This document shows, piece after piece, positions 2,136-55,555 of a DNA stretch of 64,000 nucleotides. The translations under genes and the position numbers were made by a program. This stretch comes from a virus. Positions within the stretch are counted from its first letter, which is position 1, and each line of letters begins with the position of its first letter. The notes below the pieces were generated by a model, which saw only the letters and a list, made by a program, of their open reading frames with translations, was not told the DNA's origin and did not search any database. The stretch covers positions 96,001-160,000 of the IMG/VR virus record IMGVR_UViG_3300034684_000299; one strand, given 5' to 3'.

Positions 2136-5100
2136 TCACAAACACTTAGAATTGCCACAACTCAAGCAGGTTACACACCCCTCCGCATATTGTAAACTGT
2201 TTATTGCCCCACACACAGGGCATACTGAATTTCCTTCCTCATCAATATAAACATGATTTTTAGAATCATATTTCATATCTTTCATTTCTTCTTTTGTATA
2301 ATGTGTTTTCTTATTTACTTCTTTTTTGAAATATAATCTTGGTATATCTTTGATTATATTTTCCATTTCTTCTCCTATAGTTTTTGCATAAGTTCCTTTA
2401 GTCTTTTTTAGTTGTTTTATTATTTCGTCTGGGGACACACCAGCTCTTAAGGATATAGAAGCCAATCTACCAATGATCTCAGCAGTTTCATGACCATTGG
2501 ATAAAAAAATTTCTGATGGTGAGAAATTTTCTGGGTCTATTGTAATATTCATGTATGTCGTACCTTCTTGTGTTTTTACTTTTTTCGTTATACTTGGCAT
2601 AGTTTCTAATCTTGGTTTTGGTACAATTTTCTGTTTTTGATCCAAAAAGAAAGTAAATCCATCTACAGTATGTTTAGATTTTTTTGGTTCTTTACTTTTA
2701 GTAGTCAAAACTTGTGTTTGCAAACTACCATCTCTATAAATAGTAATACCTTTGACAAAATGTTTCATAGCTTGCAAATATATATCTTTAATATCTTCTA
2801 CTGTTGCTTCCTTTGGCATATTTATGGTTTTAGATACAGAAGCGTCTATATACTCTTGAAACGCTACTTGCATATATAAATGATCTATTGGTTTTATAGT
2901 TTGAGCAGTAACAAAAACCTTTTTCAGTTTTTCATCGATTTTATCTGAATACATAAGATTGTTCAAATCCATTATATCTTCTTCAAGTTTAGCTAGCTTA
3001 GGTACTTCTTTATAATTTTCAACTTTAGCAGCTTCACTTTGAAATTCTTCAACCTTATTCATTATTTCATTGTAATACTCTATATCTGTTTCTTTTAAAA
3101 ATGATTTTAATTCGTTGTTGATGTAAATTAGTGGTACTCTTTTGCCATCTTTATTAAGCATAAATCTGGTATATACCAAAGCAAAATTTGGTTCTAATCC
3201 AGAAGAGACATCAGCTAAATTAGATATAGACCCTGTTGGAGCTATTGTATTCAATTGAACATTCCTTTTATATTTTTTACCATCTGTTGAAAAATGTTCT
3301 ATTATTTTTTCGTTCAATCTTTTCAAATTATCAGTAAGGTCAGCTATCTCATCTGAATCTGTATGTAAAGGAAATGGAATATGTCCTTGCGGATATTTAG
3401 ACTTATCAAAATCAAGAAAATTACCTTTCTCTTTTGCTATTTCAGAACTTGCAACATGTGATAAATAAGATATAGCAGCTTGCATTTCCACCGCAATATT
3501 TCTAGCTTCTTTACTATCATATGGTATTCTTTTATTGTACAACATATCCGCAAATCCCATTATACCGAGTCCTAAAAATCTTTGTTCCCTAGCAGTTTTT
3601 TCTATTTCTTCTAAAGGATACACATTCATGGTAACAACGTCATCTAAAAACATAATGGTGTATCCTACTATTTCTTTAAATTTTTCAAAATCTGGAGTAC
3701 CTATTTTATAAAACTCTGGTAATTTCTCATTTATTATTTTCACATTCAAACTACCTAAATTACAAGATCCATGATTTGGTAATGGTTCTTCACCACAGTT
3801 GTGACATACCAATCCATTGACTACACCTGCATGTGTTTTTTCCATAGAAAAGTCATACACAGGTTCAATATCGTTCTGTACAATTTCAACCACTTTTGGT
3901 GAATTTTCTCTTATTGATTCTTTCACAGAATCTCTGTACTCTATATCAAAATAAGATTTGTATAAGATTTTTCTACCTAACATGTTACTAGCACTTTTCC
4001 AATTCAATGTCTCAGCATCATATACCTTATGGTCAGGAGTAACTCTTAATTCTTTGCCATTACTGAGCTTTAATGTTATTGTGTTCTTAGTTCCTGTTTT
4101 AAATACTTTTGATTTTACAAACTCTTTATCAAAAGGTGACCATACCATCACCGTTTGCCCGTCTAGTTCACCTATACTTATTTCACCTTTATCTGTTAAT
4201 AGTTTCTCATTATAAGCAAAACATGGATTTGTAGCAGTAACTGGAGTATTGTCTGAATTAGCATAATATTTGTTATGTCTGCCTAAGAACAATAAACCAG
4301 GATCACCAGTACCCCAAGCATTTTTTGAAATAATATCCAAAAATTCTCTTGCTGATACTTCTTTGTATTTTTGTCCATTAAAAACTAAGCTGAATTTATC
4401 ATCATGTTCATATTTATCTAAAAAGCTTTCTGGATCATCTATATTAACCGATATATTGAAATACGATAGTACACTATTACCATCGTTATTCTTTTTAGAG
4501 TTAATAAAATCCATAATATCGGGATGGTCATATCTCATTACAGCCATCTGTGCTGCTCGCCTTTTACCACCCTGTTGTATAGTAGAAGCGGTTGCATTGT
4601 ACACCTGCATAAAAGAAATAGGTCCTGAAGAATATCCAGAAGTACCATGTACTAATGCCCCTTTTGGTCTTAACACGCTGAAATCATACCCAACACCACC
4701 ACCATATTTCAATATAAGAGCTGCTTTTTTTGCATAATCAAATATACCTTCCATTGAATCGTCTTCAGTATAACTGACAAAACATGCCGATAACATATCG
4801 TGTCTATTGCGAGATTCATATATGAGCTCGTAATCCTTTAAACTCATCTCTTTTATATCTTTTTGGAACCATTCAATCGGCATAGCTTCTCCAGCATTAA
4901 ATAAAGTAGGAGAATTTGGAAGAAATATTCTTTTATTTATTAATTCATAATATATTTCTTCTTTTACCTTTATACGTTCCAAAAGTTCGTCATCTTCTAA
5001 TTCACTATCTACACCTTCTGCCGCCGCTATATATCTAGCCACTCTTCTTGCAACATCGCTCCATGTACTTTCAACATATTTGTCATTTCTCTTTGCAAAA

Positions 5101-6027: not shown

Positions 6028-6037
6028 TGGTATATAT
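6028..6037 (+). promoter_or_regulatory. Recurrent promoter motif TGGTATATAT (copy 1 of 10; others at 9634, 19168, 20222, 20811, 24817, 28501, 37587, 48417, 51116)
   Basis: Identical 10-mer, always on the plus strand, intergenic or near an ORF start, usually behind a T-tract and followed by an SD-led ORF. Confidence 0.7.
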
Positions 6038-7005: not shown

Positions 7006-7262
7006 GTCAACTACCCCACCCTATAGAGGGTGGAGCTTGTGATTAACAAGCTCAGTTGATTAGCCTCAGCCAGGGGGTATTAACCCTATCGGGCTACGTT
7101 ATATGGGAATATATAGTCACCATAGGATGCTCCACAAGTCCTATGCTCTGAGGGCAGTGGTTAAACATATCTGAGGGTAGGAGAAGTGCTGCTGCCATAC
7201 AAAACCCCATATAACATTGGCGATGTGGACTTACCACTACTTTGTAGTGAGTTATTACTCTT
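7006..7262 (+). ncRNA. IscB omegaRNA (HEARO-type)
   Basis: Structured leader directly 5' of iscB (CTACGTT..., AACATTGGCGA motifs) with homologues at 35324 and 55340. Confidence 0.8.
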
Positions 7263-20844: not shown

Positions 20845-21246
20845 ATGGATAAAATGAAAGTAGTAAGGAGAAAGAAAAAAGTATTGCTGTTAAACGAATT
20901 AGGTCACGACGTAGCCTCCTGGAGATTTAAAAGTCTCCAGAAGGCAGAAAAAGCAAAAAAGGAAATGAAAAAACAAAACTTAGAAGAGATTTACATGAAA
21001 GTAAAACAAAGGTGGGAACACAAGGAAGTCGAAGTACCACCTTGTGATTTACACGACCTTATAGTGTCGAGAAAAAAAAGGTTGGAAAAATGGGAGCGTT
21101 TGAGGAAAGTCAAATTGGCACATCCAGAAATATTTGAGCATTTAGAATTTGTTGAAGAAGAACCAAGTGTGCTTAACATTTGGTTCTATAGGGGCATAGA
21201 AAATAAGAGAACCGGTCACGATATAAAGTTTTTCTGGGAAGAGTAA
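20845..21246 (+). CDS. Hypothetical basic protein
   Basis: SD-led 133-aa Lys/Arg-rich ORF. Confidence 0.7.
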   Translation: MDKMKVVRRKKKVLLLNELGHDVASWRFKSLQKAEKAKKEMKKQNLEEIYMKVKQRWEHKEVEVPPCDLHDLIVSRKKRLEKWERLRKVKLAHPEIFEHLEFVEEEPSVLNIWFYRGIENKRTGHDIKFFWEE

Positions 21247-21300: not shown

Positions 21301-21591
21301 ATGACATATTTGGGTAATGCTTTCTCCCTTCAAATGTTGGCGGAGATTCCGTCAACTTTGAAAGTGGAAGAGGTTTCTTGGGGAGAAATTCCCGCGGGAG
21401 TTGTTTCAGTTGTCGGACACCAAGACACGGCCCGTGTCTTGGGTGTTCCGTTTAATAGAGTATCTATAACGTTGGAAAAGGGTGACATTTTATATGTTGC
21501 CCAGCTCCAAGGAGGACGTCTCCCAGAGGGGGCTACCACGCTCCCCGAGGGATTTAGTTTTAAATATTTGAAAGTCGAGATTGTTGATTAA
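21301..21591 (+). CDS. acrIII-1: AcrIII-1 family viral ring nuclease (DUF1874, STIV B116-like)
   Basis: YLGNAFSLQML N-terminus, VVGHQDTA (catalytic His motif), NRVSITLEKGD, YVAQLQGGRLPEGATTL; 96 aa. Confidence 0.85.
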   Translation: MTYLGNAFSLQMLAEIPSTLKVEEVSWGEIPAGVVSVVGHQDTARVLGVPFNRVSITLEKGDILYVAQLQGGRLPEGATTLPEGFSFKYLKVEIVD

Positions 21592-21754
21592 TCTCGACTT
21601 TCCTCCAACTAAGCACATTTTCCGTTCAGCTTAGTTGAAGTATGAACGAACGGATAGGTTTGCAGGCGTTGCCCCGCTACGTCTGCAAAACCGAAAACTA
21701 ATGCGGGGCTGCATTTCAAACCTAGCAGAATAAACTGTTGGGTTTGAAATGCAG
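21571..21754 (+). ncRNA. Structured RNA module: hairpin, two tandem H-type pseudoknots and a 19-bp hairpin (tmRNA H5/PK2/PK3-like)
   Basis: Stems read directly from the sequence: 21571-82/21590-601; 21606-14/21629-37 with loop 21621-27 pairing to 21648-54; 21657-69/21679-92 with loop 21671-77 pairing to 21703-09; 21710-28/21735-53. G-U pairs favour the plus strand. Confidence 0.65.
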
Positions 21755-21813
21755 AATTCTCACCTCGCTTCATAGAATCACTCCTCACCTCCTAAACACA
21801 TGTTTATTTATTG

Positions 21814-21860
21814 GGAACGTGCGTACAGGCAGGCGTACGTTCCATCTTTTTTTTATTTTT
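21814..21860 (+). terminator. Hairpin + T-tract between the pseudoknot module and the TLD
   Basis: GGAACGTGCG/CGTACGTTCC stem followed by a long T-run. Confidence 0.6.
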
Positions 21861-21875
21861 TTTATTTTTTATTTT

Positions 21876-21948
21876 GGGGACGAATGGGATTGACAAGGAT
21901 ACTGGTGCACATCCTTGGATGCGGGTTCGATTCCCGCCGTCTCCACCA
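21876..21948 (+). ncRNA. Minimal tmRNA-like RNA: tRNA-like domain only (73 nt)
   Basis: Acceptor GGGGACG/CGTCTCC with G3-U70, A73 and CCA. T arm GCGGG-TTCGATT-CCCGC. Stemless D-loop ending GAC. 6-bp H2a closed by a 10-nt loop. Confidence 0.8.
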
Positions 21949-21986: not shown

Positions 21987-22190
21987 ATGTTAACAGACAA
22001 AGAAATCTTTCAAGAAGTTTTAGATGTTATTGAAGGGAGGAAAAAAATAGAAGAAGTAGATGATATAGTCAGATGGGAATATGAAAGATGGATCAGATAC
22101 ATCAACGGTGGTATTCCCATTGAGACAGTTCTGAGAGAGTTGAAACACAGGTTGGAAACAGGAAACTTCCATCCTGAGTATGAAGAATAA
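21987..22190 (+). CDS. Hypothetical protein
   Basis: AGGAGG SD, 67 aa. Confidence 0.7.
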   Translation: MLTDKEIFQEVLDVIEGRKKIEEVDDIVRWEYERWIRYINGGIPIETVLRELKHRLETGNFHPEYEE

Positions 22191-22208: not shown

Positions 22209-22237
22209 TTGACAAAAAGAGAAAAAAGTAGTATCAT
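22209..22237 (+). promoter_or_regulatory. sigma70 promoter of the Y RNA-tRNA-rsr operon
   Basis: TTGACA-17 nt-TATCAT; the first Y-like RNA starts 9 nt downstream. Confidence 0.8.
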
Positions 22238-22245
22238 AAATATAT

Positions 22246-22304
22246 GGGGTGGTGTGTGAAACGGTTACTTCGGTTGAGAATAATACCGTTTCCAGTTGTT
22301 CCCC
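22246..22304 (+). ncRNA. Short Y-RNA-like RNA (Ro-binding stem only)
   Basis: GGGG/CCCC closing stem and GAAACGGT/ACCGTTTC stem. Shares the TGGTGT, TACTTCG and TGTTCC motifs with the next two RNAs. Confidence 0.6.
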
Positions 22305-22322
22305 TCATTTTATAGAAAAAAG

Positions 22323-22461
22323 TACTACGTTGGTGTAGTGAAGAGTTACTTCGCCTATTAAGCGGGAGGTCGCAGGTTCAAATCCTGCCTGTATGCTTCG
22401 GCATACAGTAGCTCAGCGGTAGAGCGCCATAAATTACTCTTCACGCCTGTTCCACGTAGTA
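22323..22461 (+). ncRNA. yrlA: YrlA-like Y RNA with permuted tRNA-like domain
   Basis: Outer stems TACTACG-TGG/CCA-CGTAGTA and GTGAAGAGT/ACTCTTCAC enclose a T arm (GCAGG TTCAAAT CCTGC), an acceptor-like stem capped by UUCG, and then a D arm (GCTC..GAGC). Lies upstream of Ro60. Confidence 0.85.
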
Positions 22462-22467
22462 TTTCAT

Positions 22468-22612
22468 AGCTGTGTTGGTGTAATGAAGAGATACTTCGCT
22501 TGTTAAGCCGGTAATGCTGGTTCAACTCCAGCCTGAAGTATTCCATTGGAATACTCAGTCGTCTAACGGGTAGGACGCCGTAAATTTCTCTTCATGCTTG
22601 TTCCACACAGCT
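22468..22612 (+). ncRNA. yrlA: Second YrlA-like Y RNA
   Basis: AGCTGTG-TGG/CCA-CACAGCT and ATGAAGAGA/TCTCTTCAT (compensatory changes relative to the first copy). T arm GCTGG TTCAACT CCAGC, closed acceptor-like stem, D arm. Confidence 0.85.
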
Positions 22613-22633
22613 TTTCTTTTTTTATCATTTTTT

Positions 22634-22708
22634 TCTGGGTTAGCTCAAAGGAAGAGCAAGTGGCTGTTAACCACTTTGTTGGGGGTTCGAATCCCTCACC
22701 CAGAGCCA
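22634..22708 (+). tRNA. tRNA-Asn (GTT) with encoded CCA
   Basis: Full cloverleaf: TCTGGGT/ACCCAGA, GCTC/GAGC, AGTGG-CTGTTAA-CCACT, GGGGG-TTCGAAT-CCCTC, G73, CCA. Confidence 0.95.
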
Positions 22709-22746
22709 TATTACTGGTTCCAAAAAAATAAAAAGGTGGTGGTAAA

Positions 22747-24069
22747 ATGAGTAAAGTAAATGTGAAGAAAAGTTCCCCTTTAAAAACCCATGAAGGAGGG
22801 CCAGCAAGAGAAATAAACGCTTTGTGGAAGTTAAAACGTTCTCTCATGGCCTGTTTGCTCTGGGAAGATACCTTCTACGAAGAAGGTGTTGACATTGCCC
22901 AGAGAATAGAAACATTAGTGAGTGAAGTAAAACCCGAAGAAGCAAAAAATCTAGCAATTGAAGCTAGAGAGAATATGAAGATTAGGCATGCACCTCTTTG
23001 GGTAGTTCGTGCTATGGCACGATTACCTGAACACAAAAGACTAGTGTCTGAGACGCTGGAAAGAGTGATTCAGCGTCCAGATGAATTAACAGAATTTTTA
23101 GCTCTTTACTGGTTAGATGGGAAACAACCTCTATCTAACCAAGTAAAGAAAGGATTGGCGAAGGCGTTTACAAAATTTGACGCCTATCAACTCGCCAAGT
23201 ACAACAGGGATGGGCAAGTGAAACTGAGAGACGTTATGTTTCTCACCCATCCAAAACCGTTAAACTTAGAACAGGAAGAAATATGGAAACAACTCGTGGA
23301 TGGTACTTTACCTTCTCCAGAAACATGGGAGGTAGAATTATCTGCGGGGAAAGATAAAAAAGAAACATGGGAAAGATTACTTTCCCAGAATAAATTAGGA
23401 GCTCTAGCTTTATTAAGGAATTTGAGAAACATGGAAGAAGTCGGAGTGAATAGAAAATTAATTATTGAAGCACTCCGACGTATGAAAACTGAAAAAGTTC
23501 TTCCATTTAGGTTTATTGCTGCTGCGAGATATGCTCCTTCACTAGAACCATACCTTGAGGAAGCAATGTTTAAATGTATTCCTCAAGAGAAAATAATTCA
23601 AGGTAAAACAATTCTATTAATTGATGTCTCTGGTTCGATGGAAAGGGCTCTGTCTGAAAAATCAGATATGACAAGAATGGATGCAGCAGCAGGACTTGCC
23701 ATCTTAGCTAGAGAAATGTGTGAAGAAGTAAATGTATATACGTTTTCAGATAATGAAAAATTAGTACCACCTCGAAGGGGATTTGCTCTTCGAGATGCAA
23801 TAGTTAATAGTCAGTCTCACAATGGCACTTATCTTGGTAGGTCAATAAGTGCTATAAATCAAAAAGAACAATATGATAGAATAATAGTATTTACAGACGA
23901 GCAATCTGCAGATTCAGTACCTGCTCCGGAATCTAGAGGTTACATGATCAATGTAGCCAATTACGAGAATGGAGTAGGCTACGGATCTTGGACACACATT
24001 GATGGTTTTTCAGAAGCTGTCATAGATTATATATTGGAATATGAAAAATTGATTAATAATAATTATTAG
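22747..24069 (+). CDS. rsr: Ro60/Rsr RNA-binding protein (TROVE + vWA)
   Basis: THEGG N-terminus, FDAYQLAKY, LRDVMFLTHPKP, TWEVELS, ALLRNLRN, LPFRF, LIDVSGSM (MIDAS), VFTDEQ. Confidence 0.93.
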   Translation: MSKVNVKKSSPLKTHEGGPAREINALWKLKRSLMACLLWEDTFYEEGVDIAQRIETLVSEVKPEEAKNLAIEARENMKIRHAPLWVVRAMARLPEHKRLVSETLERVIQRPDELTEFLALYWLDGKQPLSNQVKKGLAKAFTKFDAYQLAKYNRDGQVKLRDVMFLTHPKPLNLEQEEIWKQLVDGTLPSPETWEVELSAGKDKKETWERLLSQNKLGALALLRNLRNMEEVGVNRKLIIEALRRMKTEKVLPFRFIAAARYAPSLEPYLEEAMFKCIPQEKIIQGKTILLIDVSGSMERALSEKSDMTRMDAAAGLAILAREMCEEVNVYTFSDNEKLVPPRRGFALRDAIVNSQSHNGTYLGRSISAINQKEQYDRIIVFTDEQSADSVPAPESRGYMINVANYENGVGYGSWTHIDGFSEAVIDYILEYEKLINNNY

Positions 24070-35323: not shown

Positions 35324-35580
35324 GTCAACTACCCCCGTCTAAAGACGGTGGCTTGTAATAAGCAAGCCCTAGTTGATTAGCCTCAGCCAGAGTCGCAAGA
35401 CTATCGGGCTACGTTATATCGGAATATATAGGTACCATAGGATGCTCCACAAGTCCGATGCTCTACGGTCAGTGATTAAACATCTCTGAGGGGTAGGAGA
35501 AGTGTTGCTGACAACAAACCCAATATAACATTGGCGATGTGGACCTACCGCTTAACAGCGGATTTATCCTCGAAAGAGGA
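35324..35580 (+). ncRNA. Stand-alone IscB omegaRNA (no iscB ORF)
   Basis: High identity to 7006-7262 (GTTGATTAGCCTCAGCCAG, CCATAGGATGCTCCACAAGTCC, AACATTGGCGATGTGGAC). Followed by a hairpin instead of an ORF. Confidence 0.85.
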
Positions 35581-55339: not shown

Positions 55340-55555
55340 GTCAACTACCCCACCCTATAGAGGGTGGAGCTTGTAAAAGCTCAAGTTGACTACCCTAAGT
55401 CCTTCGAGGACTACGTTATATAGGTCATAACACCTACGGGCGTTTCTCCTAACTCGTAGCTCTGTTGCTTAACTTTAAACAATCCTGTGAGGTAGGGATA
55501 GTGAGTTAAGTGTAAAAAGCCTATATAACATTGGGGAAGGAGACATTACTCCAAA
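55340..55555 (+). ncRNA. Third IscB-type omegaRNA; downstream iscB replaced by a TnpB element
   Basis: First 30 nt identical to 7006; CTACGTTATA, TTAAACA and ATAACATTGG blocks; ends in SD + ATG. Confidence 0.8.

Follow-up and report, generated by a model that had tools for sequence, protein, structure and literature searches.

A tag-less mini-tmRNA gene and a separate tmRNA-like pseudoknot pair in a probable Petrotoga phage

The tRNA-like domain (TLD) is the main binding site for the partners of tmRNA, and a complex of TLD, SmpB and EF-Tu enters stalled ribosomes. PK2 to PK4 are dispensable for tagging and have a role in folding and maturation (PMC3968760). Message-less tmRNAs have been described for plastids and mitochondria (PMC11915505), and the tmRNA of mycobacteriophage DS6A is listed as 'TLD only' (tmRNA Website tmID 11587; PMC4131195). 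According to second-hand accounts of a result in E. coli, a DS6A-like molecule strongly inhibits tmRNA, perhaps via titration of SmpB (Hudson 2014, PMC4131195; PMC11915505). The published basis for TLD-only phage RNAs consists of this one example and this one indirect experiment. The RNA analysed here belongs to this known, under-studied kind; the unusual part of the locus is a separate PK3-PK4 piece close by.

The window, i.e. the whole stretch of 64,000 nt that was analysed, is part of a viral record of 185 kb with 31% G+C and 91% completeness. The sole match of the record to the tmRNA model RF00023 lies at 21876-21948 (65.4 bits, cut-off 47, E 3e-23) on the plus strand, as do all annotated features of the locus. 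It covers a complete tmRNA TLD, in which 10 nt stand in for the 310 model positions of the message region. The acceptor stem (21876-21882/21938-21944) forms seven of seven pairs including G3·U70 and is followed by A73 (21945) and an encoded CCA (21946-21948). The D loop lacks a stem, is of the GG..U.GAC type and has GAC at its end. Helix 2a (21894-21900/21911-21917) comprises 7 bp and is capped by a 10-nt loop (21901-21910), and GGAU precedes a canonical T arm (21921-21937). The first-pass annotation had read these hallmarks, as well as the replacement of message and pseudoknots by a 10-nt loop, from the letters of the DNA, and the family model agrees on both points. It had also stated that such an RNA cannot add a tag. 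Indeed, the 73 nt contain neither a tag reading frame nor a pseudoknot ring, and a genome-wide search for a tag-like frame found none. Both Infernal and ARAGORN had been suggested for confirmation; the Rfam model recovers the TLD without message, while ARAGORN did not report the RNA at 21876-21948. As the folding energy of the 73-nt RNA is unremarkable by itself (z −1.3), the case for TLD identity rests on the family model and on covariation.

The loop is complementary to the 3′ end of the RNA over 7 nt (about 0.2% by chance, for a match chosen post hoc), and this shrinks to 5 nt (about 3% by chance) after 3′ trimming to CCA. While the match had been correctly noticed before, the self-masking switch proposed on its basis is rejected, since the complementarity is not conserved in the close strain L338: the loop change in this strain lets the duplex with the 3′ end fall from −10.1 to −1.7 kcal/mol, and in the mature RNA it is for the most part trimmed off. 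The loop also contains the palindrome GUGCAC, which is unchanged in L338 although two adjacent bases differ. A kissing-loop dimer via this palindrome is a weak lead: it is kept in two variants, yet only 2 of 64 family members (see below) have such a palindrome.

Further TLD-only RNAs were searched by pattern scans over viral, metagenome and genome contigs, followed by sorting with a script. This yielded 64 distinct RNAs of 63-90 nt including the present one, 47 of them on viral contigs. All 64 have G3·U70; U70 and ACCA were required by some search patterns, G3 by none. An alignment of 22 members, which had been fitted to the model, shows pairing in 97.8% of cells (52-61% in slid controls) and changes on both sides for 11 of 17 pairs, with position 3·70 being G·U in 22 of 22. 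Most members of 78-86 nt have, besides helix 2a, an internal loop rich in A and a capped short helix 2b. Several members are located inside phage tRNA arrays, others among replication genes. Left out of the family were tRNAs (L002, L003), 3′ ends of full or permuted tmRNAs (L010, L039, L080, L098, L133, L170, L215), the L034 group and L162. The latter (3823-3902, in an Achromobacter MAG, between MFS and acyltransferase genes) carries a tmRNA which seems internally deleted and is a likely deletion or assembly artefact.

A model built from eight members, DS6A not among them, finds the DS6A TLD at 49 bits (JN698994 28478-28560, 83 nt, between gp33 and gp34). The statement of the first-pass annotation that it knew of no described phage TLD-only RNA is thereby superseded by a published case which our family model found again. 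The two RNAs share the one-piece TLD, alanine identity, a short closed helix 2, the lack of a tag frame and the stand-alone position in a phage. They differ in size and loop, as the present RNA has 73 nt and a plain 10-nt loop, whereas DS6A falls into the 80-nt class with an inner hairpin, and in the 3′ end, which is an encoded CCA here and CUA in DS6A. A Thermotogota-type host and a separate upstream PK3-PK4 piece are features of the present locus only, and the model for the pseudoknot piece finds nothing in DS6A.

Compared to the one-piece tmRNA of Petrotogaceae (RF00023), the acceptor stem, T arm and D-loop motif are alike, but PK1, the resume codon, the tag and PK2 are missing and there is no H5 inside helix 2. 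The architecture and loop motifs of PK3-PK4 are also shared; in the standard tmRNA this pair is inside the ring, whereas here it precedes the 5′ end. Message-less organellar tmRNAs (mitochondrial RF02544 and the plastid forms of about 65 nt in Mallomonadaceae; PMC11915505) are likewise TLDs without a tag frame. The mitochondrial ones are usually permuted, however, and the phage RNA instead coexists with a full host tmRNA. Permuted two-piece tmRNAs (RF04321) resemble the locus in having body and acceptor elements in a rearranged gene order. In RF04321 the 3′ half stands before the 5′ half and the pieces pair via the acceptor stem, while the halves of the phage RNA are contiguous, in standard order and self-closed. 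RF04321 scores 25.3 bits on the phage RNA (cut-off 47), and no separate tag-coding piece was found.

Several other RNAs were noted during the search. A second reduced class comprises 140-nt tmRNA-like RNAs with a full TLD, a long helix 2, two inner hairpins and no conserved tag frame (L050:1498-1637 (−), L051:2513-2652 (+), L064:1922-2061 (−) and about 30 similar marine loci such as L027, L028, L035 and L038); the L050 RNA reaches 62 bits with RF00023. An 11-nt inner hairpin sequence is common to the DS6A TLD and the TLD of an unrelated viral contig (L199:3479-3561 and L017:806-887). L034, L060, L067, L070 and L128 carry a 71-nt TLD-like sequence with weak helix 2 that is perhaps an integration remnant; in L060, L067 and L128 a full tmRNA lies about 1 kb away. 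The viral contig L269 has a full tmRNA-like gene (4252-4612) with a seemingly degenerate T arm and 3′ end. A Pistol ribozyme match (50.7 bits) was found at L009:5916-6012 (−), about 2 kb from a TLD-only RNA.

DNA of the phage was found in subsurface and oil-field samples. Its beta clamp shares 72% identity with that of Petrotoga sp. DB-2; the values for P. olearia and Defluviitoga are 70% and 64%, respectively. For its ThyX, the best solved relatives bear the name TM0449, which we take to be a Thermotoga maritima protein. Judged by these similarities the host is probably Petrotoga (Thermotogota).

We favour the reading, with a probability of roughly 0.5, that the mini-tmRNA is a maintained phage gene of the DS6A kind whose RNA would compete with host tmRNA and so lower tagging and proteolysis. 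Its transcription would come by read-through from the phage promoter upstream of the acr gene (see below), and RNase P and 3′ trimming would release the RNA, which would be charged with alanine through G3·U70 and A73. The charged RNA would be bound by SmpB and EF-Tu of the host. SmpB was found in 25 of the 26 host-family genomes searched, while a search of the phage record (91% complete) for an SmpB gene found none. Host tmRNA would then face competition from the RNA for both SmpB and non-stop ribosomes. Because it has no resume codon, no degradation tag would be added, alanine at most, and trans-translation as well as tag-driven proteolysis would be damped during infection. An SmpB decoy that blocks host trans-translation had already been proposed in the first-pass annotation; it stands as the leading idea in view of the inhibition of tmRNA attributed to the DS6A-like molecule (PMC4131195, which gives it second-hand), with a putative benefit for the phage.

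The phage promoter motif is located at about 20811 and in L189 lies directly before acr. Between this motif and the TLD two terminator-like elements are found at 21240 and 21814, and a search for a closer promoter in the same interval gave no match. The second element is a terminator-like hairpin which together with a U-rich leader (21814-21875) directly precedes the mini-tmRNA, with no promoter match between them. With this hairpin and its U tract close before the RNA, and with no promoter of its own detected, the RNA may be present at a low level, which would be ill-suited to a titrating decoy. The RNA-library contigs X6 and X9 span the locus, although contigs alone do not show transcription. 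An extended −10 type phage promoter motif, UGGUAUAUAUA(A)U, is repeated before short genes at 6028, 9634, 19168, 20222 and 20811.

A tentative alternative, to which we give some but limited credit, is that the RNA helps phage translation after nuclease attack instead of blocking the host. As a tag-less rescue factor, the alanyl-TLD with SmpB would enter non-stop ribosomes, take over the chain and add one or several alanines, and drop-off would free the ribosome, as for the message-less mitochondrial tmRNA. In vitro and with no mRNA present, a TLD fragment together with SmpB is cited as making polyalanine (Shimizu and Ueda 2006, cited in PMC3929946), and mitochondria keep message-less tmRNAs together with SmpB (PMC11915505). 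Furthermore, alanine identity and CCA are kept family-wide and would not be needed by a pure SmpB sponge; U70 and ACCA are partly imposed by the search patterns, G3 is not. Nevertheless, the RNA offers no stop codon for release factors, and the DS6A-like RNA is said in the second-hand accounts to inhibit and not to replace tmRNA. Competition and tag-less rescue overlap as readings, because both lower tagging.

The gene upstream (21301-21591, 96 aa) is a putative AcrIII-1-like gene (DUF1874, STIV B116-like), assigned by homology from a PF08960 match below the cut-off (E 5e-5) and matches to PDB 2x4i and 6scf. An anti-CRISPR role of AcrIII-1 is reportedly questioned in one native system by a preprint (bioRxiv 10.1101/2023.01.10.523387). 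Directly downstream of the mini-tmRNA lies a gene of unknown function (21987-22190, 67 aa) which has a ribosome-binding site. It is followed by a unit of three Y-RNA-like RNAs, tRNA-Asn (22634-22708) and rsr/Ro60 (22747-24069), which extends from 22246 to 24069 and has a sigma70-type promoter match at 22209-22237. A U-rich leader also precedes tRNA-Asn. One of the Y RNAs is minimal and two are of the YrlA type (RF02553 33.6 bits, below the cut-off); pairs of Y RNA and Ro60 are already known from phages (PMC4201824). YrlA RNAs and the mini-tmRNA are alike as tRNA mimics in phages and are neighbours at this locus. YrlA has a permuted tRNA module and a capped acceptor stem, whereas the mini-tmRNA has a predicted chargeable 3′ end and no Ro-binding stem, and RF02553 matches only 22330-22452, not the mini-tmRNA. 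Elsewhere in the window three HEARO RNAs were identified at 7006-7234, 35324-35548 and 55340-55549 (146-163 bits), of which the first and third precede long ORFs; no long ORF comes immediately after the second (35324).

This neighbourhood of AcrIII-1-like gene, Y RNAs, Ro60 and tRNA-Asn would fit an RNA that, together with the adjacent anti-defence and RNA-handling genes, serves as a decoy or a replacement substrate when host defence targets tmRNA or tRNA by nucleases or sensors. CoCoNuT systems have SmpB-like domains predicted to bind tmRNA (PMC11090510). We consider such a role unlikely, as neither the TLD nor the pseudoknot piece occurs in any of 11 other acr and 5 other rsr loci and the other family members lie among tRNAs or replication genes. 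The linkage to rsr and acrIII-1, for which a search of phage metagenomes had been suggested, is local.

Turning to the history of the gene, ten Petrotogaceae tmRNAs have the same acceptor stem and a matching T arm, and 31 of their last 32 nt are identical to the phage RNA, while its D loop and helix 2a are unlike all 26 host-family genomes searched. That the mini-tmRNA derives from a Petrotoga-type host tmRNA gene is part of the favoured reading and shares its even odds, which apply to both jointly. Strains L189, L191 and L193 have all 73 nt unchanged, while nearby segments differ by up to 14-20%; this identity is weak by itself, since some flanks are invariant as well. In L338, helix 2a reads AGGAAU/AUUCCU in place of AAGGAU/AUCCUU, i.e. 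two pairs are altered on both sides and the fold stays the same. The presence of the locus in the independent assemblies L189, L191 and L338 rules out an assembly artefact. With compensated stem pairs in a close strain, and with no tyrosine or serine recombinase or integrase found in the 91% complete genome, the mini-tmRNA looks like a maintained phage gene.

The near-identity of the last 32 nt to host tmRNA, the second tmRNA fragment close by and deletion-type cases among the search matches (L162, L034 group) could alternatively point to a non-functional remnant or to a leftover attachment site from integration at a tmRNA 3′ end. We regard this as improbable given the compensated changes in helix 2a, the divergence of D loop and helix 2a from the host genomes and the missing recombinase; the DS6A copy also lies about 9.6 kb away from its integrase. 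A fresh deletion remnant of a full tmRNA, which the first-pass annotation had allowed for, is contradicted by the L338 pairs and by a 5′ half that is complete and paired.

The second tmRNA-like piece, located behind the acr gene at 21604-21712, folds into tandem H-type pseudoknots that match PK3-PK4 of Petrotogaceae tmRNAs. The PK3-like stems (21606-21614/21629-21637 and 21621-21627/21648-21654) and, after a UA linker, the PK4-like stems (21657-21668/21680-21692 and 21671-21677/21703-21709) are all paired. For comparison 50 Thermotogota tmRNAs were used, and a covariance model was made from 18 host sequences only. This model ranks 21604-21712 first in the 185-kb genome with 28.8 bits (E about 5e-4, a rough value), the next match having 15 bits. 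Held-out Thermotogota tmRNAs score 32-62 bits, above the phage piece; of four tmRNAs from other phyla, two reach 19-23 bits. Two pseudoknot stems that are absent from the model are each seven of seven paired in the host register. The phage piece and host PK3-PK4 have in common a UAG junction, GAAAAC in PK4 loop 3 and the closing CUGC, and loop 3 of PK3 has AGUA, which several Petrotoga and Defluviitoga-like sequences have as well. In L189, PK3 stem 1 has one compensated and one improved pair, and PK4 stem 1 has one broken pair. A loose descriptor for tandem pseudoknots matched 0 of 400 local shuffles, but is no proof alone because of about 20 spurious AT-rich matches genome-wide. The element was not picked up by a sequence-only nhmmer profile, by BLAST against phages and plasmids or by a pre-filtered genome search, and a second phage lineage carrying it was sought and not found. 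An assignment as PK2-PK3 was discarded, as the alignment to Thermotogota tmRNAs matches PK3-PK4 instead. In our judgement homology of 21604-21712 to host PK3-PK4 is very probable.

The piece has no H5/PK2 before it and no helix-2 3′ strands after it; searches for PK1, PK2 and a tag-coding piece found none. It is flanked by a hairpin holding the acr stop codon (21570-21602, −18.5 kcal/mol, invariant in three strains) and by a hairpin of about 20 bp directly after the PK4-like element (21709-21754, −31.6 kcal/mol, with loop and some stem positions varying in L191 and L338). The former stands at the place of H5/PK2 in tmRNA and resembles it in position only. Two UCACCUC tracts between 21756 and 21795 look like the 16S anti-Shine-Dalgarno, and their pairing with the ribosome-binding site of acr is predicted at −18.6 kcal/mol, a value without control; the first tract is also similar to the helix-2 3′ strand of host tmRNA (9 of 12 versus L314). 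Pairing of the linker 21756-21800 with host tmRNA was dismissed, as it beats shuffles for one of four hosts, is marginal for one and fails for two. An antisense ORF of 54-59 aa at 21609-21788 is no gene, because it has a premature stop in L191 and indels in L189.

The gene order PK3-PK4, 5′ TLD, 3′ TLD is neither that of a standard nor of a permuted tmRNA. It seems that a captured tmRNA gene was split and two of its pieces were kept in rearranged order, with PK3-PK4 as the second surviving piece; this order would probably follow from tandem duplication of the captured gene and complementary losses. The earlier suggestion that the RNA is half of a split tmRNA is therefore partly right as history, given the PK3-PK4 piece upstream, but no tag-coding or pairing partner was found. 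Most likely the role of the pair is simply to stabilise the acr message, whose 3′ end it would structure or shield from nucleases, and it would not be part of a working tmRNA. It is very improbable that the phage has dismembered host tmRNA into two RNAs that each work on their own, one being the tag-less TLD and the other a PK3-PK4 module joined to the 3′ side of the acr frame; in this reading the module would contact the ribosome like the tmRNA ring or cooperate with TLD-SmpB to steer ribosomes stalled on nuclease-cut messages to acr RNA, away from the host degradation tag. We give the least credence to a working two-part tmRNA with acr message, stop hairpin and PK3-PK4 as coding piece and the TLD as acceptor, steering rescued ribosomes onto acr RNA. 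In its favour, reading frame, stop-codon hairpin, PK3 and PK4 follow each other in a tmRNA-like order, and 164 nt separate the piece from the downstream TLD on the same strand. Against it, the TLD closes on itself and its loop was not found to pair convincingly with the upstream RNA; PK1, resume context and PK2 are missing, acr is equipped with a ribosome-binding site and a start of its own, a terminator-like element stands between the pieces, and not one of the 63 other members comes with a credible partner of this kind.

The locus is a likely record of how a TLD-only RNA originates through splitting of a captured host gene, and tmRNA pseudoknots may have been reused here as a 3′ element of an mRNA. 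TLD-only RNAs are natural test molecules for what a message-less tmRNA does on the stalled ribosome, be it a block, rescue or an alanine tail; the answer would matter for mitochondrial tmRNA as well. As such RNAs are common and missed by ARAGORN, interference of phages with ribosome rescue may be widespread.
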